10,458 nt of DNA from a virus (taxonomy: Duplodnaviria > Heunggongvirae > Uroviricota > Caudoviricetes). The translations under genes were made by a program, and so were the position numbers. The notes under the pieces are model-generated. The model was not told the DNA's origin. It ran no database searches and worked only from the letters and a program-made list of their open reading frames with translations. The DNA is taken from IMG/VR virus record IMGVR_UViG_2563366942_000013. One strand, written 5' to 3'. This document shows positions 2,620-10,458 of this stretch, piece after piece; position 1 is the stretch's first letter, and the number at the start of each line of letters is the position of its first letter.

Positions 2620-3210
2620 ATGTCTCGAATTTTTGCTTACTGTCGGATATCAACGCTGGATCAGACCACCGAAAATCAACGCCGGGAAATCGAAAGTGCA
2701 GGTTTTAAAATCAAACCTCAGCAAATAATCGAAGAACACATTAGCGGCTCAGCAGCAACCAGTGAGCGTCCTGGTTTTAACCGGTTGCTTGCTCGCCTGA
2801 AATGTGGTGATCAATTGATTGTGACAAAACTGGATCGCCTTGGTTGTAATGCAATGGATATCAGGAAAACAGTGGAACAACTGACCGAAACAGGTATCAG
2901 AGTGCATTGCTTAGCATTGGGGGGCATTGACCTGACCAGTCCAACAGGAAAAATGATGATGCAAGTAATTTCAGCAGTCGCTGAATTTGAACGAGACCTT
3001 TTACTTGAACGCACTCATTCCGGGATAGTAAGAGCCCGGGGCGCAGGGAAACGTTTTGGTCGACCACCTGTGTTAAATGAAGAACAGAAACAGGTGGTAT
3101 TCGAACGGATTAAGTCAGGTGTAAGTATAAGTGCCATTGCCCGGGAATTCAAAACCTCGCGGCAAACCATTTTAAGAGCCAAAGCAAAACTTCAGACACC
3201 TGACATATAA
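2620..3210 (+). CDS. pinQ: Serine recombinase / DNA invertase (Pin/Gin/Hin/Cin family)
   Basis: 196 aa; N-terminal resolvase/invertase catalytic motifs (YCRISTLDQ with active-site Ser, [10 protein letters not shown]) and C-terminal helix-turn-helix ([18 protein letters not shown]). Size and context match PinQ/PinR of Qin/Rac-type prophages. Confidence 0.9.
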
Positions 3211-3307: not shown

Positions 3308-3427
3308 CTACGGCAGTGCTGGCCATTCAATATCCTGTGCAGTTGACGTATCAACACGGTTCAGCAACACCCGATACTTCTTCCAGGCTTCCCGCAACGA
3401 GGTTTCTTCCTCCGTTGCATATACAGC
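3308..3427 (-). pseudogene. 3-prime remnant (39 codons) of a tail fibre assembly gene (tfa)
   Basis: Minus-strand frame translates [39 protein letters not shown] then stop (3308-3310); this matches the conserved Tfa C-terminal motif ([16 protein letters not shown]...IEWP) as recalled from lambda Tfa. An in-frame TGA lies immediately upstream (3428-3430) and there is no start codon. Confidence 0.6.
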
Positions 3428-3431: not shown

Positions 3432-3455
3432 TGAACCGCCCCGGGTTTCCTGGAG
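3432..3455. repeat. IS terminal inverted repeat (orfB-proximal end)
   Basis: TGAACCGCCCCGGGTTTCCTGGAG; partner at 4718-4741 in inverted orientation. Confidence 0.8.
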
Positions 3456-3473
3456 AGTATTTTATCTGTGAAC

Positions 3474-4364
3474 TCAGGCTGCCAGATCATCGTTTCCGAT
3501 GGAAGCATAATAAGCTTTTTCTGCTTCTGCCGGAGGAGTATGGCCCAGCCTTTCCAGCAATCGTCGATTGTTATACCAGTCCACCCACGTGAGTGTGGCC
3601 AGTTCCACTTCTGCACGGTTTTTCCAGCTCTTACGGTGTATTACCTCCGCTTTGTAAAGACCATTGATGCTCTCCGCCATCGCGTTGTCATACGAGTCGC
3701 CTGTACTTCCTGTTGATGCCAGTAATCCGGCTTCCTTAAGCCGCTGTGTGTAGGCCAGCGATACATACTGAGAACCTTTATCACTGTGATGGACCGTGCC
3801 GGACGGTCGACGGGCCCATAACGCCTGCTCCAGTGCATCCAGCACGAATGTCGTCTCCATGGACGATGAGACCCGCCACCCCACAATGTATCCGGCAAAC
3901 ACATCAATGATGAACGCCACATAGACGAAGCCCTGCCATGTGCTGACGTAAGTAAAATCAGCCACCCACAGCTGGTCAGGTCGTTCTGCCACGAACTGAC
4001 GGTTTACGCGGTCGCCTGCGGCAACGGCTTTCCGGCTGATGGTCGTACGGACCTTTTTACCCCGGAGAACACCGGCAAGTCCCATAACCGCCATGAGACG
4101 TGCCACAGTGCATCTGGCCACTCTGATACCTTCCCGTAACAACTGACGCCAGACTTTACGCACACCGTATACCTTGTGATTTTCATCGTATACGCGCTGT
4201 ATCTCTTTCTTCAGCCAGTCATCGCGCTGCGCACGGGCACTGCGTTTATCCGGATGATGTCGCTGTTGCTGACAGTGGTAATACGTTGACGGGGCAATAT
4301 GCAGTTCGCTGCATAGCGGTCCGACCCCGTACTGCTCACGCAGCTTATCCAGCAGTGGCATCAT
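3474..4364 (-). CDS. IS3-family transposase OrfB (DDE catalytic domain, 296 aa), normally expressed as OrfAB fusion by -1 frameshift
   Basis: DDE-type motifs (WVADFTYV..., [25 protein letters not shown]); ATG overlaps the orfA stop (ATGA) in the -1 frame. Confidence 0.9.
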
Positions 4365-4372
4365 TTTTTCCA
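4361..4372 (-). other. Putative programmed -1 ribosomal frameshift window (A6 run at orfA/orfB overlap)
   Basis: Minus strand reads TGG AAA AAA TGA with orfB ATG overlapping the stop; the A-run is a plausible slippery site by analogy with other IS3-family elements. Exact heptamer not verified. Confidence 0.45.
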
Positions 4373-4687
4373 GAGGCGGTCGAACTCCGCCTTCGCAAAA
4401 TAAGCGGAAGCCTGGCGAAGGATATCGTTACTGCGGCGCAGTTCACGATTTTCACGCTCCAGCTCTTTCAGACGCTGACGTTCAGCGGTGGTGAGCCCTC
4501 CATCACCGCCCCCGGTATCCCGCTCATGCTGGCGAACCCAGACACGCAGAGTCTCCGGCGTACAGCCAATCTTTGGAGCAATGGAACAAATTGTCGCCCA
4601 TTGTGAGTCATATTCGCCCTGACTTTCCAGAACCATACGGACTGCCCGTTGACGGACTTCAGGGGAAAAACGAGTATTTTTAGTCAT
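4361..4687 (-). CDS. IS3-family transposase OrfA (DNA-binding subunit, 108 aa)
   Basis: [53 protein letters not shown]... (HTH plus leucine-zipper-like region), recalled as characteristic of IS629/IS1203 OrfA. Confidence 0.9.
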
Positions 4688-4717
4688 CCTGTTTACCTCT
4701 TTCTCAGGAAGTTTAGT

Positions 4718-4741
4718 CTCCAGGATTCCCGGGGCGGTTCA
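4718..4741. repeat. IS terminal inverted repeat (orfA-proximal end)
   Basis: CTCCAGGATTCCCGGGGCGGTTCA, reverse complement of the 3432-3455 repeat with 2 mismatches. Confidence 0.8.
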
Positions 4742-4744: not shown

Positions 4745-4750
4745 CTTTTT

Positions 4751-5044
4751 TCACCCACGATTAACCAACAGCCAGACCAGCAGACACGCCACCACCGGCA
4801 CAGCAAAATCCATCAGGCTTGCCACATCCCACGCACGCGGATCAAAACCGCCCCACCACGGCATATTCATACGCTTGCCATGCCCGAACATTTCAATCCA
4901 GCGATATTCTGCCTGGGTATGTTCACGCGCAATGAAGAACGTACAACCAGCTATCGCCCCGTAAGCCCAGTTTCCGGTAAAAAGACCAACCAGTACCTGC
5001 GCAGCCACAGCACAAAGTGCATGAAGGAAAGGTGTTATATCCAT
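4751..5044 (-). CDS. Small integral membrane protein of unknown function (97 aa)
   Basis: Perfect Shine-Dalgarno AGGAGG 4 nt upstream of ATG (reverse complement of 5049-5054); two to three hydrophobic segments (FLHALCAVAAQVLVGLF, FAVPVVACLLVWLLV). Last gene of the tight minus-strand operon; stop is 6 bp from the IS target duplication. Confidence 0.55.
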   Translation of the reverse strand: MDITPFLHALCAVAAQVLVGLFTGNWAYGAIAGCTFFIAREHTQAEYRWIEMFGHGKRMNMPWWGGFDPRAWDVASLMDFAVPVVACLLVWLLVNRG

Positions 5045-5054
5045 TACGCCTCCT

Positions 5055-5759
5055 TTATCCGATATCGCTTCGGGAAACGGATAACAACTTTAATTCTGAC
5101 TCAAGTTCATCAACTCTTTCAGTCAGCTTCTGGATATGGTGAATCAGTGGAACAACCAGACGTTCGTACATTACACCTTCGGCAACAAGGCCATTGCTGG
5201 AAATGGTTTCCGGTGCATCATCTTCGTTGGCTGGTCGCCAGTGAACAAACTGAGGGGCAATTTCTCCAACTTCCTCGGCAATCAATCCATAGAATCCCCA
5301 GTCACGCCTGTCATTTTCGCATTGCGACCTGTACCACACAGGGCGCATCCTGAAAATGAGATCGGCGTGCTCTGAATCTATCGTCTCTACTGAATGTTTA
5401 TAGCGGATAGACGATGTTGACCGCAGCACAGACGAAATTGCAGGGTCAGGATTAAGATAAAGATTTGCCGCCGCTGTAGTTGTGCCCAATCCCCATAAAT
5501 AAAACGCTTCACGGCCAGTCAGCGGGTAAAAATCTCCGCCATAACGACCACTTTCCAGATCGTTCACTTCCACTTTGTTTTTCAGCTTATTATCAACTTC
5601 AGTTTTTGTGTATCTGGTGCTGATATCCTGCTTTGCACTGGCCATATCAGTCTGAAGCGTTGATACTTTTCCGTTAATAGAGGAAATATCTTCCTTTGCT
5701 TTACTGACATCTCCCTTCAGCGTGGTGATGTCTCCCGGAATTACTGTTGATGTAGCCAT
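5055..5759 (-). CDS. Short fibre-like protein: N-terminal coiled-coil region plus C-terminal peptidase-S74-type intramolecular chaperone domain (234 aa)
   Basis: GAGG Shine-Dalgarno 7 nt upstream. C-terminal half matches the S74 chaperone-domain pattern as recalled: S-S-I-R-Y-K-H-S-V (Ser116/Lys121 spacing like S-D-x-R-L-K-x-N-I), RPVWYRSQ, GFYGLIAEEVGEIAPQFV, VPLIHHIQKLTERVDELESEL. N-terminal heptad-like repeats (DITTLKGDVSKAKEDISSINGKVSTLQTDMASAKQDIS). Confidence 0.7.
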   Translation of the reverse strand: MATSTVIPGDITTLKGDVSKAKEDISSINGKVSTLQTDMASAKQDISTRYTKTEVDNKLKNKVEVNDLESGRYGGDFYPLTGREAFYLWGLGTTTAAANLYLNPDPAISSVLRSTSSIRYKHSVETIDSEHADLIFRMRPVWYRSQCENDRRDWGFYGLIAEEVGEIAPQFVHWRPANEDDAPETISSNGLVAEGVMYERLVVPLIHHIQKLTERVDELESELKLLSVSRSDIG

Positions 5760-5768
5760 TTCTCTACC

Positions 5769-6050
5769 TCACATCCAGCCACGAAGTTGATGCTCAACAG
5801 CAACCGCGTATTCATCGAATAATGACGATATTTGCGTATCCTTAATAATGCGCACGTTTACAAAATATCCATCTTCCTTAACACATACCGGTTCGCCATC
5901 TTCAGTCAGCTCTCCGGTTTCTTTGTACACGTTACCTATCACATCAATCAGAATATCATCCTGCATCGACTCGTCATTATAATAGCCAATACTTCCCATA
6001 AAGGCCGAAAAGTCGGCCCTGTCGGCAAATTTGAGTGTTAAATCTTTCAT
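5769..6050 (-). CDS. Hypothetical acidic protein (93 aa); possible fibre chaperone or accessory protein
   Basis: ATG overlaps the upstream stop (TAATG) indicating translational coupling; GGGGAG about 8 nt upstream. No recognisable motif; highly acidic. Confidence 0.5.
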   Translation of the reverse strand: MKDLTLKFADRADFSAFMGSIGYYNDESMQDDILIDVIGNVYKETGELTEDGEPVCVKEDGYFVNVRIIKDTQISSLFDEYAVAVEHQLRGWM

Positions 6051-6913
6051 TAGATTGACTCCCCCATCTGAGCATCAGTCAATGCCTTGTGCCAAATACG
6101 CAGATTTCGAACGTGTCCAAATAGGTGACGGTTGCCGGATGATGATTGACCACCAATATTAATGAAGCCTCCTGTATATTTGTGTTTTTTATAAGGAGAA
6201 ACTACCTTAGCACCAATATTACCGTTAACCACAACACACAATTCTCGACTTTCTGTGAATCTAAAGCCGATAATGCTTTTTCTCTCTGGTCGTTCTATAA
6301 CGCTTTTATATTCTATTTTAGTGCCTTTACCATTTGTAATGATTGCGCGTGCTCCCAAAGATGTATACCCCAAATACATATAACTTTCATCTGCAATTTC
6401 AGTTGTATCTCCCGTAGTGGAAATATTAAGAATACGTGCGCTACCTTCTTTGTTTGGCGATTCATCCCAATTGGTATTAACTTCTGCTAATGAACTAATA
6501 GCGGGATTGCACCAATTTAGAGAAATGGGGACCGTTACAATATCGCTGGCGCGTGTTACAGGGGATGCGCCTGTTATAATAAACGATGAAGCGCATGCCC
6601 CACCTTCAACTTGAGGGGTCGCAATATAAATATAATCATCCGCGCCAGTGCCCACTCCTTTTGCCGGGGCATACTGAACCATTCCACCTATCATATTTTC
6701 TGTATCAAGTGCCTTAATTGTCGCCTCAAAAAAGATCCATTTGCTTGCTTCATCTTTAACAGCCCTTGCAGTAATGCGATTAGCGGCACCACCCGTCTTA
6801 TCAATAGATAAATCTGTCGTATTTAAGTAAGCGTCACCTAAGAATGTGTAGGTAGAACCATCATAGTTTTCAAATCGTAATCGGCATCTTAAATTTGGAG
6901 TGCCACTTTGCAC
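6050..6913 (-). CDS. LamG/concanavalin-A-like lectin-domain protein; probably the distal receptor-binding part of the side tail fibre (287 codons, GTG-initiated as drawn)
   Basis: C-terminus shows LamG-type pattern (VVVNGNIGAKVV...GGFINIGGQSSSGNRHLFGHVRNLRIWHKALTDAQM). In the same frame as stf, separated by a single TGA (6941-6943) and 9 sense codons; no ATG and only a weak RBS at the GTG. Confidence 0.6.
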   Translation of the reverse strand: MQSGTPNLRCRLRFENYDGSTYTFLGDAYLNTTDLSIDKTGGAANRITARAVKDEASKWIFFEATIKALDTENMIGGMVQYAPAKGVGTGADDYIYIATPQVEGGACASSFIITGASPVTRASDIVTVPISLNWCNPAISSLAEVNTNWDESPNKEGSARILNISTTGDTTEIADESYMYLGYTSLGARAIITNGKGTKIEYKSVIERPERKSIIGFRFTESRELCVVVNGNIGAKVVSPYKKHKYTGGFINIGGQSSSGNRHLFGHVRNLRIWHKALTDAQMGESI

Positions 6914-6940
6914 CCTGCATGATATGGTTACATACTTTTC

Positions 6941-8455
6941 TCAGCCTGTTACATCAAAACCTTTACTGCCGGAAACGGTTACTATGTTAATCGCTGAAAT
7001 TTGCCCTACCATTTCTGGTTTTAATGTAAATTTTGCGTACTGGAATCCGAAATCATCTACACCTGATGCACTTAAGATCATATTTGACGACTTGTTCCAT
7101 TTAGTCGGATTTGTTGAATTGATTAGCAGGTTAGTTCTTTGCCCCTCAATAAGCAGGCCATCACGTTCAAATCGTGGCTCGTCAATGGCAGCCTCTGTCA
7201 GCACACCAGATTTATTAATGTAAGTTGCTTTCGATGCGCGTTTAAACTTTACAATCTTGTCGCCAGGCATTGTTATTTCATCGTCGCCAATAACAATTTT
7301 TTTATATGATGGCGAAAAGCCCGTAATCATATCCAGTGAATCATTAAACGGTATCCACACATCAGGCAGTGGCTGTAAGACATATTTATACGGCTCTGCT
7401 GCCTGACTTGCATACTCTCTGGCTGCGTCTTCACTTGCTTTAGCTGCTGTCTGGCTTGCTGCCGATGCTTTCGCCGAGTTCGCCGCTGCAGTCTCGCTTG
7501 TCTTTGCATTGGTTTCACTGGTTTTTGCTGCTTTTTGACTGTTGGCTGATGCAGTGGCAGAAGCAGCCGCCGCGCTTGCAGAACTGGCTGCGGCACTCTC
7601 GCTTTGGGCCGCTGCATCCTGACTGCTTTTCGCCGCAGTTTCACTGGCTTTGGCATTCGTTTCGCTGGTCTTCGCTGCCGTCTGGCTGGACTTTGCGTTA
7701 GTTTCACTCGTCTTCGCAGCTTTCTGGCTGTTAGCCGCAGCAGTTGCTGATCCAGCTGCTGAAGTCGCAGAACCGGCTGCCGCGCTCTCGCTTTGGGCTG
7801 CTGAAACCTGGCTGTTTTTTGCTGCAGTTTCACTGGCTTTAGCATTCGTTTCGCTGGTCTTCGCTGCCGTCTGGCTGGACTTTGCGTTGGTTTCGCTTGT
7901 CGTTGCGGCTGTCTCGCTATTTTTCGCGTTGGTTTCTGATTTTTTAGCTGCTGTTGCGGAGTTTGCCGATGCAGTCTGCGAGGCCGCTGCCGCCTGTGCG
8001 CTGTTAGCTGCATTCGTTTCTGAGGTTTTCGCCGCGTTCTTCGATGATGCCGCTGCAGTTTCGGATTTCTTTGCCGCCGCTGCGCTCTGAGAGGCGGCTT
8101 CAGCGTTGCGTGCCGCTTCTTCCACCATTTCCTCAAAACGACGCAATGCCTCCGGCATGACATCATCTTCCGTCATGGCACCGAGAAAATCATTCAGCGT
8201 ACCTGGTCTGGAACCTTCATAGACGGTAATGGTTCCGGCATGTGAAGGCGGAAAACCTTCAACCAGCAGGGTGACGCTGTACTGGCCATACTCAACATCC
8301 ATGCTGTAACGCCCGGCTTCATCCGGATTTTCAGAGGCCACTGTGTTGACCAGTACCGTGGTGCTGTTACGCTTTGCCTTCAGTTGAATAGTGCAGTTCT
8401 GTATTGGTTTTCCCGCACCATCTTTCAGCACACCTGAGATTTTTACTGCTGCCAT
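6941..8455 (-). CDS. stf: Side tail fibre protein Stf (lambda-like N-terminus, Ser/Ala/Thr-rich repeat region, distinct distal segment)
   Basis: MAAVKISGVLKDGAGKPIQNCTIQLKAKRNSTTVLVNTVASENPDEAGRYSMDVEYGQYSV... closely resembles the lambda/Rac Stf N-terminus as recalled. GGAG Shine-Dalgarno 5 nt upstream of ATG at 8455 (track start at GTG 8461 is probably an over-extension). Ends at TGA 6941-6943. Confidence 0.85.
   Translation of the reverse strand: MAAVKISGVLKDGAGKPIQNCTIQLKAKRNSTTVLVNTVASENPDEAGRYSMDVEYGQYSVTLLVEGFPPSHAGTITVYEGSRPGTLNDFLGAMTEDDVMPEALRRFEEMVEEAARNAEAASQSAAAAKKSETAAASSKNAAKTSETNAANSAQAAAASQTASANSATAAKKSETNAKNSETAATTSETNAKSSQTAAKTSETNAKASETAAKNSQVSAAQSESAAAGSATSAAGSATAAANSQKAAKTSETNAKSSQTAAKTSETNAKASETAAKSSQDAAAQSESAAASSASAAAASATASANSQKAAKTSETNAKTSETAAANSAKASAASQTAAKASEDAAREYASQAAEPYKYVLQPLPDVWIPFNDSLDMITGFSPSYKKIVIGDDEITMPGDKIVKFKRASKATYINKSGVLTEAAIDEPRFERDGLLIEGQRTNLLINSTNPTKWNKSSNMILSASGVDDFGFQYAKFTLKPEMVGQISAINIVTVSGSKGFDVTG
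7596..7973. repeat. Imperfect tandem direct repeats inside stf (189-bp spacing, about 115-bp conserved core, nested 42-bp/14-aa sub-repeats)
   Basis: CTCTCGCTTTGGGC... recurs at 7596 and 7785; protein shows repeated AAKTSETNAKxSxT units. More degenerate copies extend to about 7440-8060. Confidence 0.6.
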
Positions 8456-8463
8456 ATCCACTC

Positions 8464-8493
8464 CACAAAAAAGCCCGCCTGAACCGGCGGGCT
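8464..8493 (-). terminator. Rho-independent terminator downstream of lom / upstream of stf
   Basis: Minus strand: GCCCGCC-GGTTCA-GGCGGGC followed by TTTTTTGTGGAG; the T-tract runs into the stf Shine-Dalgarno. Confidence 0.6.
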
Positions 8494-8519: not shown

Positions 8520-9119
8520 TCAGAATTTATAACCGACACCAACGATGAAACCGTCAGTGCGCCAGTCACCACTGCCAGAACCTTCATAAGCAATATCAAT
8601 GGCCACGGATTCGGTCGGGTTAAACTGCACGCCAGCCCCCCACGCCAGAGACGTGTTGCTGTGGCGATCGTCATCACTTCCGGTCAGCACATCGTGCGTT
8701 TTCCCCTTGTTGTCAGTTACGCGGAGATAATCCCCGGAGAACGTCGAAACACGGCTGTAAGCCACACCTGCCATCGCATAAGCACTGAACCATTCATTCA
8801 CGCGTACAGATGGCCCCGCCATCATGCTGAACCAGCGGTTACGCACTGAATCTTCATGCCAGCGGGTATCGCTGTAATGCGTTTTTTGCTCACCTTTGGC
8901 ATTGGCATAACTGAATGACGTCACCAGCCCCAGCGTGTCCGTAAATTCATAACGGTATTTCACGTTAATGCCCTTCAGGTCATCACTGCCTGGCATATCA
9001 GTATGGGTTTGAAGATACCCGGCGCTTAGTGTGGACTGATGCTCTGCTGCGCTCGCTGACGTACCAGCAGCAACCAGCCAGACTACTGCGGACAGAATAA
9101 CAGCACATAATTTACGCAT
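8520..9119 (-). CDS. lom: Lom/Ail/PagC-family outer-membrane protein (prophage moron)
   Basis: 199 aa with signal peptide (MRKLCAVILSAVVWLVAAGTSASA) and C-terminus DIAYEGSGSGDWRTDGFIVGVGYKF matching lambda Lom as recalled; GAGAGG RBS upstream; location between J and stf as in lambda. Confidence 0.9.
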   Translation of the reverse strand: MRKLCAVILSAVVWLVAAGTSASAAEHQSTLSAGYLQTHTDMPGSDDLKGINVKYRYEFTDTLGLVTSFSYANAKGEQKTHYSDTRWHEDSVRNRWFSMMAGPSVRVNEWFSAYAMAGVAYSRVSTFSGDYLRVTDNKGKTHDVLTGSDDDRHSNTSLAWGAGVQFNPTESVAIDIAYEGSGSGDWRTDGFIVGVGYKF

Positions 9120-9186: not shown

Positions 9187-10458
9187 TCAGCTGATACTGA
9201 TGCCTGCGGTGGCTTTCTTCATCACCACAACCAGCAAATCGCTGATACTTGCTGTGGGATACCAGTCATTTACCAGCCATGCTGACACCGAAAACTCCAG
9301 CGTCATGTGACCGTGACCGGCAGGCATATCAATAACGCCACTGTAAATCAGCGTATTATCCAGCGCGGTACGGTTATAAATTTCAGCACCGTTTTTCCGC
9401 ACTATCAGACGGCATGAGGAGTAAATATCAGTATGCTCTCTCTCATGTTTAGCGCCGCTGAATGCCACCGCCGGAATAACAATCTGCCGGTCAAACGGCT
9501 GATCGTCATAAATCCTGACGGTAATGGTCCCTGATGGCCACCGTTCCGGTGCACGGGAGTCCCGGGGGAAAGCTTTGCCCACTGTTTTAACGAGATCGCC
9601 TTCAATCTGGTTCGCGGACAGTTTTCCCAGAACCCGGCAGTTCTCGTTAATCGTGACGTTGTTGAGCGTCCCGGAGTTCGCATTCACGTTACCGCTGATA
9701 TCGGCATTTTTCGCCGTCAGCCGCCCGTCCGGTGTCAGGGAAAATGCCGGAGGATTACCGCCGCTGGTAATGGTGGGAGCCGTCAGATATTTCAGGAACA
9801 CTTCGTTCATGAATATCTGATCGCCCTGCCCAACAAACATCGGCTTTGTGTTGCCATTCGCAGGATTAATCATCGCAATCCTGTCTGCCGCCAGCAGCAC
9901 CTGACTCTGCATGCCGTCAGGGGTGTTTTCAATACCGGCACCAATACCCGCGATATAAAGGCGTCCGTCCTGCATCTGCTGCAGCTTCACAGCCCACATG
10001 CTGTTCAGGTTATTATTTGTATCAACCTGAACCTTCTGTATCTGCTGGATCGCTGCACTCTGGTCTTCCAGTTTCTTATTGACGGTCTGCGTGATTTCAT
10101 TACTGACATCCGTGATGGACGTTCTGATTTCCGCCAGGTCAGGCGCAAGCTGACCGTTATCAATCTGCGTCCACAACTCCTGAGCCAGATGGGTTTTCCC
10201 TATCTCTCCTTTGAAAAAATCCAGATAGCCGGATGCATCATCACTCGGCTGGCCAACAGCCTCCACGAATGCCGATTTGCCAACGGTGTTCACACTGCGG
10301 ATGTAAAAATAATAATCATGGCCCGGCTTGATATTGATACTGGCAGCTATCCAGTACAGCGCCGTGCCAAGATAGCGGGCTGTGGTTTCAACCTGCCTGA
10401 TATCCGCAATCCGCTTTTCCGAGAACCAGAACTCAAACTGTACCGTCGGATCATAAAC
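9187..10458 (-). CDS. J: Tail tip / host specificity protein J (central tail fibre), C-terminal portion; 5-prime end lies beyond the window
   Basis: Frame is open from the window edge through 9187. Translation ([19 protein letters not shown]..., [39 protein letters not shown], ...DMPAGHG...) matches the lambda J C-terminal region as recalled. Track start at 10293 is an internal GTG. Confidence 0.9.

Follow-up and report, generated by a model that had tools for sequence, protein, structure and literature searches.

What has taken the place of the usual side-tail-fibre C-terminus and its assembly gene in this element, an E. coli lambda-like prophage? An earlier note on the window (the whole stretch of 10,458 nucleotides analysed here) described four tightly packed open reading frames between the stf repeat region and pin, and read them as an undescribed, horizontally acquired host-range or accessory cassette. 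We consider it probable instead, judging from sequence comparisons, that the block forms the distal half of a side tail fibre module with two parts, which lambdoid phages have in common with T1-, T5- and rV5-like phages. The features on which this reading draws are as follows.

2620-3210, pin (Pfam search)
3311..3418, minus, 3′ remnant (36 codons) of the tail fibre assembly gene tfa
3432..4741, minus, IS3-family insertion sequence of 1310 bp (HTH_Tnp_1 and rve domains, terminal repeats)
3474-4364, minus, orfB of the IS3 element
4361-4687, minus, orfA of the IS3 element
4751..5044, minus, open reading frame for a 97-aa three-helix membrane protein, phrog_1443 (structure model, motif)
5055..5759, minus, open reading frame for a 234-aa predicted minimal distal fibre (Pfam S74, N-terminal motif)
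5769..6050, minus, open reading frame for a 93-aa acidic protein, phrog_1361 (start overlaps the stf stop)
6050..8461, minus, stf, side-tail-fibre frame of 803 codons with an in-frame TGA (single-frame reading)
6050-6913, minus, 287-aa "LamG" open reading frame, the 3′ end of stf
6941-6943, minus, in-frame TGA at codon 507 of stf (GGA in the relative L001)
8472..8493, minus, GC-rich hairpin with a T-run, terminator-like, between lom and stf

Composition and borders of the block

The coordinates, overlaps and Shine-Dalgarno sequences agree with the description of tightly packed minus-strand genes. The stf stop and the 93-aa start overlap in TAATG behind a Shine-Dalgarno sequence GGGGAG, the 93-aa and 234-aa genes are separated by 9 nt containing the Shine-Dalgarno sequence GAGGTAGAG, and the 234-aa and 97-aa genes by 10 nt containing AAGGAGG. 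The frames are not four independent genes, however; the block consists of three genes and the broken 3′ end of stf. The 287-aa frame, which had been taken for a lectin gene of its own, lies in frame with the 506-codon stf frame, and only the TGA and nine codons stand between them. At the same position locus L001, 99.8% identical, has GGA (Gly) within a single open 801-codon frame, and phage IdasGreatGrand has GAT (Asp). A separate "LamG" gene was therefore rejected. The exact truncated product, 504 aa long, is recorded on a single contig (GCA_000407965.1), and the TGA is either a nonsense mutation private to this copy or an erroneous base in a draft assembly. With TGA at codon 507 only a tip-less shaft would be made, so the fibre module is probably inactive in this window.

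The block had also been called AT-rich as a whole. This holds for the stf C-terminal module and the 93-aa gene (GC 0.41-0.42), in part for the 234-aa gene (0.46), and not for the 97-aa gene, which at 0.53 is backbone-like and lies outside the AT-rich block; J, lom and the N-terminal part of stf range from 0.51 to 0.54. The GC content of about 0.41, together with 85-95% amino-acid identity over Stf residues 365-650, supports the proposed horizontal transfer and points to an origin in T5-/T1-like lateral fibres.

As noted earlier, the canonical Stf C-terminus and Tfa are absent and replaced by the module, and a tfa remnant and pin lie nearby (3311-3418 and 2620-3210). The tfa remnant, also present in phage 21, 2G7b and L001, is a scar of this replacement. 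It is separated from the module by the IS3 element, which the earlier note did not mention and which carries 41-nt terminal inverted repeats, is bounded by a 3-bp target duplication (CAC), and is inserted 7 nt past the 97-aa stop codon. On the other side of stf, the terminator-like hairpin has an annotated counterpart at the equivalent place in phage 21, which lacks lom, between J and stf.

The side tail fibre and its neighbours

Read as one frame, Stf divides into four parts.

Residues 1-134, tail-attachment domain PF08400 (225 bits)
Residues about 115-355, Ala/Ser/Thr-rich repeat shaft (189-nt tandem repeat, 2.2 copies)
Residues about 365-650, module that is conserved in the lateral fibres of T1-, T5- and rV5-like phages, with a GTA head-spike-fibre-like domain
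Residues about 651-803, hypervariable ConA/LamG-like (galectin-like) tip

NF048003 scores above its cut-off in Stf (38 vs 36 bits), and Stf matches PDB 6tb9 (E 5e-5), the RcGTA head fibre Rcc01080, which binds capsular polysaccharide (PMC10218006; PMC7296036). At the C-terminus of the 287-aa frame Laminin_G_3 falls below its Pfam cut-off (20.5 vs 27.6 bits); the match recurs at the same place in six of nine homologues, and a profile of the tip found no match in the PDB. Residues 651-740 are just 21-38% identical among homologues. Whole-length alignments give 44% identity to Bas32 gp22, 56% to the BUCT632 LTF, 64% to the tuinn LTF and 42% to phage 21 Stf, and the C-terminus of the rV5-like nimi fibre aligns at 36%. 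A Pfam search found no S74 domain in Stf and no Tfa. An intact Stf would attach to the tail tip via its PF08400 domain and form an Ala-rich coiled-coil shaft, ending in a module of ~440 residues that comprises the GTA-head-spike-fibre-like and the hypervariable ConA/galectin-like domains. The primary receptor, bound reversibly by this end, may be a polysaccharide of the cell surface (O-antigen or capsule).

The tip comes without a lambda-type Stf C-terminus or a complete tfa, and the translationally coupled 93-aa gene always comes after it. Homologues lie directly 3′ of the fibre gene in lambda-, T1-, Dhillonvirus-, T5- and rV5-like phages, at every locus examined and in 181 phage records. The product is acidic, as had been claimed (pI 4.2), and its AF2 model is alpha/beta (pLDDT 81.7), for which structure comparison gave no informative fold match. 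Its identity showed no clear co-variation with that of any Stf sub-region (r 0.15-0.41, 9 loci). We propose that the 93-aa protein is an assembly or accessory factor of the fibre tip, most likely one that helps to fold or complete it.

The 234-aa protein had been described as a coiled-coil protein with a peptidase S74 domain, and Pfam and PDB matches agree on this: Peptidase_S74 (PF13884) scores 27.2 bits against a cut-off of 22, and the domain matches PDB 8hqz_d, residues 952-1068 of DT57C LtfA (E 1e-7). The protein opens with an adaptor motif MATSTVIPGDITTLKG, continues with a coiled-coil stalk (~50 residues) and a conserved segment, again of ~50 residues, ahead of the cleavage site, and closes with the S74 domain, which carries a Ser116/Lys121 pair; the N-terminus corresponds to phrog_4563 and the C-terminus to phrog_3299. 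T1-like phages have full-length homologues (57-62% identity). The N-terminal motif is common to the 345-aa fibre of 2G7b, Bas32 gp24 and the 579-aa fibre of BUCT632, and motif and Ser/Lys pair are kept in distal fibres of 166-579 aa. On these sequence criteria we read the 234-aa protein as a minimal distal fibre. Its S74 domain would trimerise the protein and then release itself by cleavage in front of Ser116; the remaining stub of 115 residues may dock on Stf through its N-terminal motif, as Bas32 gp24 has been modelled on gp22. A remnant of ~115 residues is small for a receptor-binding fibre. Phage 21 and the rV5-like phages carry tip and 93-aa gene but no distal fibre, so a branch is optional. 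The individual domain calls of the earlier note (ConA/LamG-like tip, self-cleaving S74 domain, small acidic protein, membrane protein) hold, and its phrase of a lectin-tipped side fibre with an auxiliary self-cleaving short fibre is a fair description.

The structure model of the 97-aa product, predicted to be a membrane protein, shows three long hydrophobic helices (pLDDT 94), in keeping with that call; the protein has an invariant motif REHTQAEYRW...R.NMPWWGGFD. The gene is 97% identical in phage 21, whose fibre reaches just 42%. It is also found 3′ of a P22-like tailspike gene, two genes downstream of gpJ in a Comamonas prophage, and alone on an Aeromonas chromosome. Its backbone-like GC, the P22-like tailspike neighbour and the lone Aeromonas copy argue for an accessory gene of the lambdoid backbone rather than a fibre component. 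The product may be an unrelated inner-membrane protein at the usual site of lysogenic-conversion or exclusion genes, and we propose a membrane factor expressed in the lysogen; no sigma-70-like promoter was found for the gene, which leaves lysogen expression unsupported.

Alternative readings of the three downstream genes

The 234-aa protein could instead be a trans-acting, S74-derived chaperone of the Stf tip that acts in assembly and is absent from virions. Residues 116-234, most of the protein, are S74 domain and the mature part is tiny, Stf itself has neither an S74 domain nor Tfa, and homologues are labelled "putative lateral tail fiber chaperone" (in BASEL phages) or "chaperone of endosialidase". 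S74 domains, however, are known to act in cis, on their own chain. The N-terminal 16-32 residues are common to long distal fibres (2G7b, 345 aa; Bas32 gp24, 574 aa; BUCT632, 579 aa), which indicates a docking adaptor, phage 21 and rV5-like phages build the same type of tip without the gene, and several plaque-forming T1-like phages have a split or truncated homologue. We therefore regard a trans-acting chaperone as unlikely and a docked distal fibre as the better reading.

That all four frames form one undescribed cassette with a membrane-acting part, as first suggested, is very unlikely and, by the synteny data, largely refuted. A literature search found no paper describing the lambdoid version or assigning a function to the 93-aa and 97-aa proteins, neither of which matched a Pfam, NCBIfam or PADLOC family. 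Against this, many cultured phages and thousands of genomes have the genes in this order, with annotation, so that the arrangement largely proved to be on record already. The full set of four is found in 146 of 5426 complete E. coli genomes and in the cultured temperate phages IdasGreatGrand and PhiR49_1, classical phage 21 holds three of the four, and BASEL T1-like phages annotate the trio of fibre, 92-aa and S74 genes as [quoted passage not shown]. The fibre part has even been modelled in print, in T5-like Bas32, with gp22 as a proximal fibre that has a galectin-like domain and carries gp24 (PMC11990801). Nor do the genes travel jointly: loci may lack the 234-aa gene, and the 97-aa gene, with its different GC, accompanies unrelated receptor-binding proteins. 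It is scarcely credible that the three downstream genes are lysogen cargo ("morons") unrelated to the fibre, like lom or bor. They do lie at the late-operon end beside the prophage end, a place used in lambdoid phages for cargo such as sitABCD, and for the 97-aa gene the idea is plausible. The 93-aa and 234-aa genes, however, overlap or abut the fibre gene without a promoter-like site of their own and are kept behind it in T1- and T5-like phages, which are strictly virulent; rV5-like phages keep the 93-aa gene there as well, and none of these phages has a lysogenic state. This indicates virion-related rather than lysogeny genes. The fibre module is largely ordinary, a widespread, little-studied alternative side-tail-fibre gene set also present in phage 21 and in T1-, T5- and rV5-like phages.

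Comparison with known fibre systems

With the lambda Stf-Tfa system, including the pin-type invertible tips of e14, Rac and Qin, the locus shares the N-terminal attachment domain, the repeat shaft and the place after J and lom, with a tfa 3′ remnant and pin nearby; the C-terminal receptor-binding region and a complete Tfa are missing here, and the module stands in their stead. Phage 21 (OL657228) has the same Stf architecture and the same backbone of J, stf, small gene, membrane gene and tfa remnant, in the order stf, 92-aa hypothetical protein, 97-aa putative membrane protein and sitDCBA. Its 97-aa protein is 97% identical, its 93-aa counterpart 53% and its Stf just 42%, and it lacks both lom and a distal-fibre gene between its two small genes.

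T1-like phages (Drexlerviridae; BASEL Bas05 PeterMerian, tuinn) combine a lateral tail fibre with a 92-aa protein and a ~230-aa S74 protein, the last 57% identical over its full length, with up to 90% identity to the Stf module over residues 365-650. They differ in being virulent, in their N-terminal anchor, in lacking the 97-aa gene and in the label of chaperone given to the S74 protein. The branched L-shaped LtfA/LtfB fibres of DT57C and DT571/2 likewise consist of a proximal fibre carrying a second, S74-ending fibre (Golomidova et al. 2016, PMC4728585; Ayala et al. 2023, PMC10713586). In DT57C the C-terminal end of LtfA itself is an S74 domain, where Stf has a lectin-like tip; no match to LtfA was obtained for Stf residues 355-803, a search with the 234-aa N-terminal motif retrieved neither DT57C nor phiEco32, and the section consulted on the DT57C locus reports no 92-aa gene.

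Bas32 (IrisVonRoten, T5-like; Humolli et al. 2025, PMC11990801) differs in having a T5 Ltf-type N-terminal anchor where Stf has the lambda-type PF08400 domain, in the two receptor-binding domains of gp24, both of which the 234-aa fibre lacks, and in its host element, which here is a temperate lambdoid prophage with a 97-aa membrane-protein gene following. Its gene order is the same as here: gp22 (residues 61-796) aligns with Stf residues 133-803 at 44% identity, gp23 (92 aa) is 38% identical to the 93-aa protein over its full length, and gp24, the distal T-shaped fibre, shares with the 234-aa protein both the S74 domain and the N-terminal motif (MATSTVIPGDITTLK here vs MVTKTVIPTDITKLK in Bas32).

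A single stf frame interrupted by a stop codon

The fibre locus of this E. coli lambda-like prophage contains a side-fibre gene (stf) that is read here as two ORFs, followed by three small ORFs, an insertion sequence and a remnant of tfa.

Features of the window (coordinates, strand, description)
9187-10458, minus strand: ORF, C-terminal part of J
8520-9119, minus strand: ORF, lom
6941-8461, minus strand: first ORF of stf, 506 codons
6050-6913, minus strand: ORF of 287 aa
5769-6050, minus strand: ORF of 93 aa
5055-5759, minus strand: ORF of 234 aa
4751-5044, minus strand: ORF of 97 aa
3432-4741, minus strand: complete IS3-family element of 1310 bp, encoding orfA/orfB; its terminal inverted repeats (41 nt) are imperfect and its target duplication is CAC
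3311-3418, minus strand: 3' remnant of tfa, 36 codons
2620-3210, plus strand: pin

The 287-aa ORF, which the earlier note listed as an ORF of its own with a LamG-like domain, is the in-frame 3' part of stf, separated from the 506-codon ORF by only a TGA (6941-6943) and nine codons. A locus 99.8% identical to the window (L001) carries GGA at the position of this TGA, and its frame stays open for 801 codons; the corresponding codon of phage IdasGreatGrand is GAT, within an intact 731-aa protein. Both halves fall into one 793-position PHROGs family, phrog_1419, in which the first ORF (residues 4-506) occupies positions 1-503 and the second (residues 4-287) positions 516-793. Because the relatives carry GGA or GAT and the exact truncated product is on record from one contig only, that of this assembly, the TGA is either a nonsense mutation private to this genome or a wrong base in the draft assembly. 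Owing to the stop codon, the fibre gene is probably not functional in this genome. The intact 801-codon stf of L001 (7711-9714) is tagged by RefSeq as a pseudogene "missing C-terminus", though its frame is open to position 7309; the annotation pipeline appears to have been misled by the unusual tip.

The ORFs and their tight packing, recognized earlier from the sequence, are real. The stf stop and the 93-aa start overlap as TAATG, with GGGGAG just before. The 93-aa gene is separated from the 234-aa gene by 9 nt, in which GAGGTAGAG is found, and the 234-aa gene from the 97-aa gene by 10 nt, in which AAGGAGG is found. The AT-rich block that had been ascribed to all of them comprises the C-terminal module of stf (GC 0.408), the 93-aa gene (0.418) and the 234-aa gene (0.457), but ends before the 97-aa gene, whose GC content of 0.531 is like that of J, lom and the N-terminal part of stf (0.51-0.54). 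At approximately 0.41, the fibre block matches the fibre loci of T5-like (0.40) and T1-like (0.44) phages.

The IS3-family element separates the 97-aa gene from the tfa remnant, lying 7 nt past the stop codon of the former, and L001 displays the empty site. A tfa remnant beside the module is common to L001, phage 21 and 2G7b, which indicates that replacement of the lambda-type tip is old and not strain-specific; the strain-specific events are the stf TGA and the IS insertion.

J only appears truncated: it is cut by a 4755-N gap in scaffold KE136762.1 (E. coli assembly GCA_000407965.1; positions 1243-5997 of L013, the window's source scaffold) just past window position 10458, and the window ends there because of this gap. 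The short J is thus an artefact of the assembly, and a truly truncated J was rejected. A group II intron reverse transcriptase gene is found beyond the gap in L013. Between lom and stf (8472-8493, minus strand), a strong terminator-like hairpin is followed by a T-run, so stf expression presumably depends on late antitermination. Phage 21 has an annotated terminator at the equivalent place, between J and stf. The flanks of the window hold YnaE-like, YnaM-like, MFS and mannitol-dehydrogenase-family genes. A shiA-like assignment of the MFS gene was dropped, since its YnaE-, YnaM- and mannitol-dehydrogenase-family neighbours suit the ydfJ/ydfI end of a Qin-type locus on the K-12 map, which makes this a putative Qin-type prophage end. 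The fibre module adjoins pin and the putative Qin-type chromosomal end in the window, not the sitABCD iron/manganese transporter genes, which it adjoins in L001 (2211-5660) and phage 21 (L008, 5177-8626).

Domains and relatives of Stf

Stf begins with a PF08400 attachment domain (residues 5-134; 225 bits against a cut-off of 26.6), and its gene comes after J and lom. The Ala/Ser/Thr-rich shaft (residues ~115-355) contains a 189-nt tandem repeat (7484-7901; 2.2 copies of a 63-aa unit with a 42-nt sub-period), through which the length variation among relatives (731-803 aa) probably arises. Residues ~365-650 contain a GTA head-spike-fibre-like domain (NF048003, 38 bits against a curated cut-off of 36) that matches RcGTA Rcc01080 (PDB 6tb9 sequence) over ~240 residues with an E-value of 5e-5. 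Capsular polysaccharide is the ligand of the RcGTA head fibre (PMC10218006; PMC7296036), and a glycan receptor is therefore expected for Stf. The tip (~651-803) is putatively ConA/LamG-like: Laminin_G_3 (PF13385) scores 20.5 bits, under its gathering score of 27.6, and is found below threshold (17-25 bits) at the same C-terminal place in six of nine homologues, near full length in two of them. A profile of the lectin-like tip found no match in the PDB. The domain calls of the earlier note were right. Its statement that the canonical Stf tip and Tfa are absent also stands, as the window holds no lambda/T4 gp37-like C-terminal tip and no complete tfa, only the 36-codon 3' remnant. A search of Stf for an autocleaving S74 domain gave no match.

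Relatives of Stf (protein, identity, aligned region)
tuinn lateral tail fibre (T1-like): 64%, Stf 246-803
BUCT632 lateral tail fibre (T5-like): 56%, Stf 133-803
IrisVonRoten (BASEL Bas32, T5-like) gp22: 44%, Stf 133-803 with gp22 61-796, BLASTP E 2e-179
Phage 21 Stf (lambdoid): 42%, Stf 5-803, essentially full length
nimi fibre C-terminus (rV5-like myovirus): 36%, Stf 365-803

As these alignments show, the distal half of Stf also occurs outside the lambdoid phages. Identity with IdasGreatGrand, tuinn and BUCT632 rises to 85-95% over residues 365-650; residues 651-740 are only 21-38% identical in all comparisons, the pattern that a specificity-determining surface would show. The horizontal origin proposed earlier is borne out by the GC content of ~0.41 together with the 85-95% identity to tuinn and BUCT632. 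Matches to parts of the 2.7-kb block occur in 165 phage records; of 5426 complete E. coli genomes, 3749 match parts of it and 146 contain at least 80% of it.

The small genes downstream of stf

The C-terminal half of the 234-aa protein carries the S74 domain (PF13884, residues 116-172; 27.2 bits against a gathering score of 22), and this domain matches the C-terminus of LtfA from the branched T5-like tail fibre pair LtfA/LtfB of DT57C (PDB 8hqz_d, E 1.2e-7). Ser116 and Lys121, five residues on, lie in the sequence TSSIRYK, which aligns with TSGIEYK of LtfA and with SDRDLK, SDSRLK and SDSRVK of longer fibres; we take the two residues to be the S74 catalytic pair. At the other end, the first 16-32 residues (MATSTVIPGDITTLKG...) recur in distal fibres that are 345, 574 and 579 aa long, among them gp24, the distal T-shaped fibre of Bas32. 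The motif M(A/V)T.TVIP.DI..LK is kept in the window protein, the 231-aa protein of PeterMerian, tuinn, the 345-aa protein of 2G7b, gp24 and the 579-aa fibre of BUCT632. Only residues 86-228 align with gp24 (445-569), spanning a short stretch ahead of the self-cleavage motif and the S74 domain.

Full-length homologues with 57-62% identity occur in ~45 T1-like phages, and the 234-aa protein is therefore not a fragment. We read it as a minimal distal fibre, which would dock on Stf and shed its S74 chaperone domain. Less probably, it acts as a chaperone in trans, as some annotations suggest. Several plaque-forming T1-like phages (L003, 2750-3250; hits H60-H62 and H72) carry this homologue truncated or in two pieces, which suggests that the gene is dispensable on the rough K-12 isolation host.

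A homologue of the 93-aa protein directly follows the fibre gene in every locus opened, namely those of the lambdoid phages IdasGreatGrand, 2G7b and phage 21, T1-like tuinn and PeterMerian, T5-like BUCT632 and IrisVonRoten, and rV5-like nimi. Phage 21 and nimi possess this homologue and lack the distal fibre, so the 93-aa protein goes with the tip rather than with the branch. From this synteny, we infer that it partners the lectin-type tip, either in assembly or as an accessory protein. Its co-variation with Stf sub-regions is weak.

The 97-aa membrane protein has a different distribution. It is 97% identical in phage 21, directly after the 92-aa gene, where the fibre is only 42% identical. 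Relatives are located immediately behind the JEP4 tailspike gene (a P22-like phage), in a Comamonas prophage at two genes downstream from gpJ, and in Aeromonas as a lone chromosomal gene in a non-phage context. These settings, along with the missing distal fibre in phage 21 and nimi, dissolve the four-gene unit that the earlier note had proposed; the 97-aa gene, with its backbone-like GC content, is an accessory gene of lambdoid (and P22-like) phages rather than a component of the imported fibre module. Members of the family occupy 4751-5044 in the window and 5001-5309, 5001-5303 and 3989-4288 in the compared loci L009, L010 and L011. An exhaustive profile search groups the family into 438 clusters at 50% identity, and each of the best 150 matches listed is a protein of 58-146 aa with a single domain; there are no informative fusions among them. 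The family displays an invariant polar motif, REHTQAEYRW...R.NMPWWGGFD, and the AF2 model comprises three helices (pLDDT 94). No promoter-like site was found for the gene. From the gene's position, one may guess that it acts in the lysogen, for instance in exclusion or envelope modification.

Neither the 93-aa nor the 97-aa protein matches a Pfam, NCBIfam or PADLOC family, even when 42 family members were searched at relaxed E-values. We regard it as rather doubtful that the two constitute new functional classes, the first a dedicated, hitherto unrecognized partner (assembly factor or removable cap) of lectin-tipped fibres in at least five phage groups and the second a new superinfection-exclusion or envelope-modifying factor.

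Comparison with known fibre systems

Side and lateral fibres determine which O-antigen or capsule types are in a phage's reach, and lambda-based delivery particles have been retargeted with interchangeable fibre modules. The 85-95% protein identity that links the lambdoid tip module to portions of T1- and T5-like fibres documents that temperate and virulent phages have recently exchanged such DNA. A defined junction near Stf residue 365, usable for chimeric fibres, is provided as well, and the 93-aa gene, as a conserved small partner, may need to be transferred along with such tips. The 97-aa gene brings to light a conserved membrane protein family.

The earlier note had not recognized the combination as a described unit, and was wrong on this point. 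IdasGreatGrand and PhiR49_1 each carry all four genes, and the Bas32 homologue has been modelled in print (PMC11990801). For lambdoid phages, our survey of the literature on phage 21, ECOR prophages and variants of lambdoid Stf yielded no account of the module.

The DT57C type of docking pairs a phiEco32 gp14-like region (LtfA 223-471) with a phiEco32 gp15-like N-terminus of the distal fibre. This LtfA/LtfB arrangement, considered for the window, is unsupported: Stf 355-803 has no match to LtfA (8hqz_d) at E-values up to 1, and DT57C and phiEco32 are absent among the 60 of 69 matching records listed in a tblastn search with the N-terminal 32 residues of the 234-aa protein. LtfA also ends in its own S74 autocleaving domain, whereas none was found in Stf. 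With lambda-type Stf, the window protein shares the PF08400 N-terminus and the place after J and lom, but not the lambda-type tip with a complete tfa.

Close parallels are seen with Bas32. In the model of Humolli et al. 2025, gp22 is a "proximal fiber" with a C-terminal "additional galectin-like domain" and distal gp24 attached, the attachment being an AlphaFold-Multimer model (PMC11990801). The window's proximal fibre is homologous to gp22 through the C-terminal lectin-like domain, and Laminin_G_3 is sub-threshold in both. A ~92-aa gene lies directly downstream in each case; the 93-aa gene of the window overlaps the stf stop, and its product is 38% identical to gp23. The N-terminal adaptor motif of the distal fibre is likewise common to the 234-aa protein and gp24. 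In contrast, the Gp12-like and T5-like receptor-binding domains that give gp24 its T-shape are missing from the window protein, which has no room for them in 234 residues. We read the window module as a lambdoid representative of this known class of lateral fibres, which are lectin-tipped and consist of two parts; it is probably inactive in this genome.
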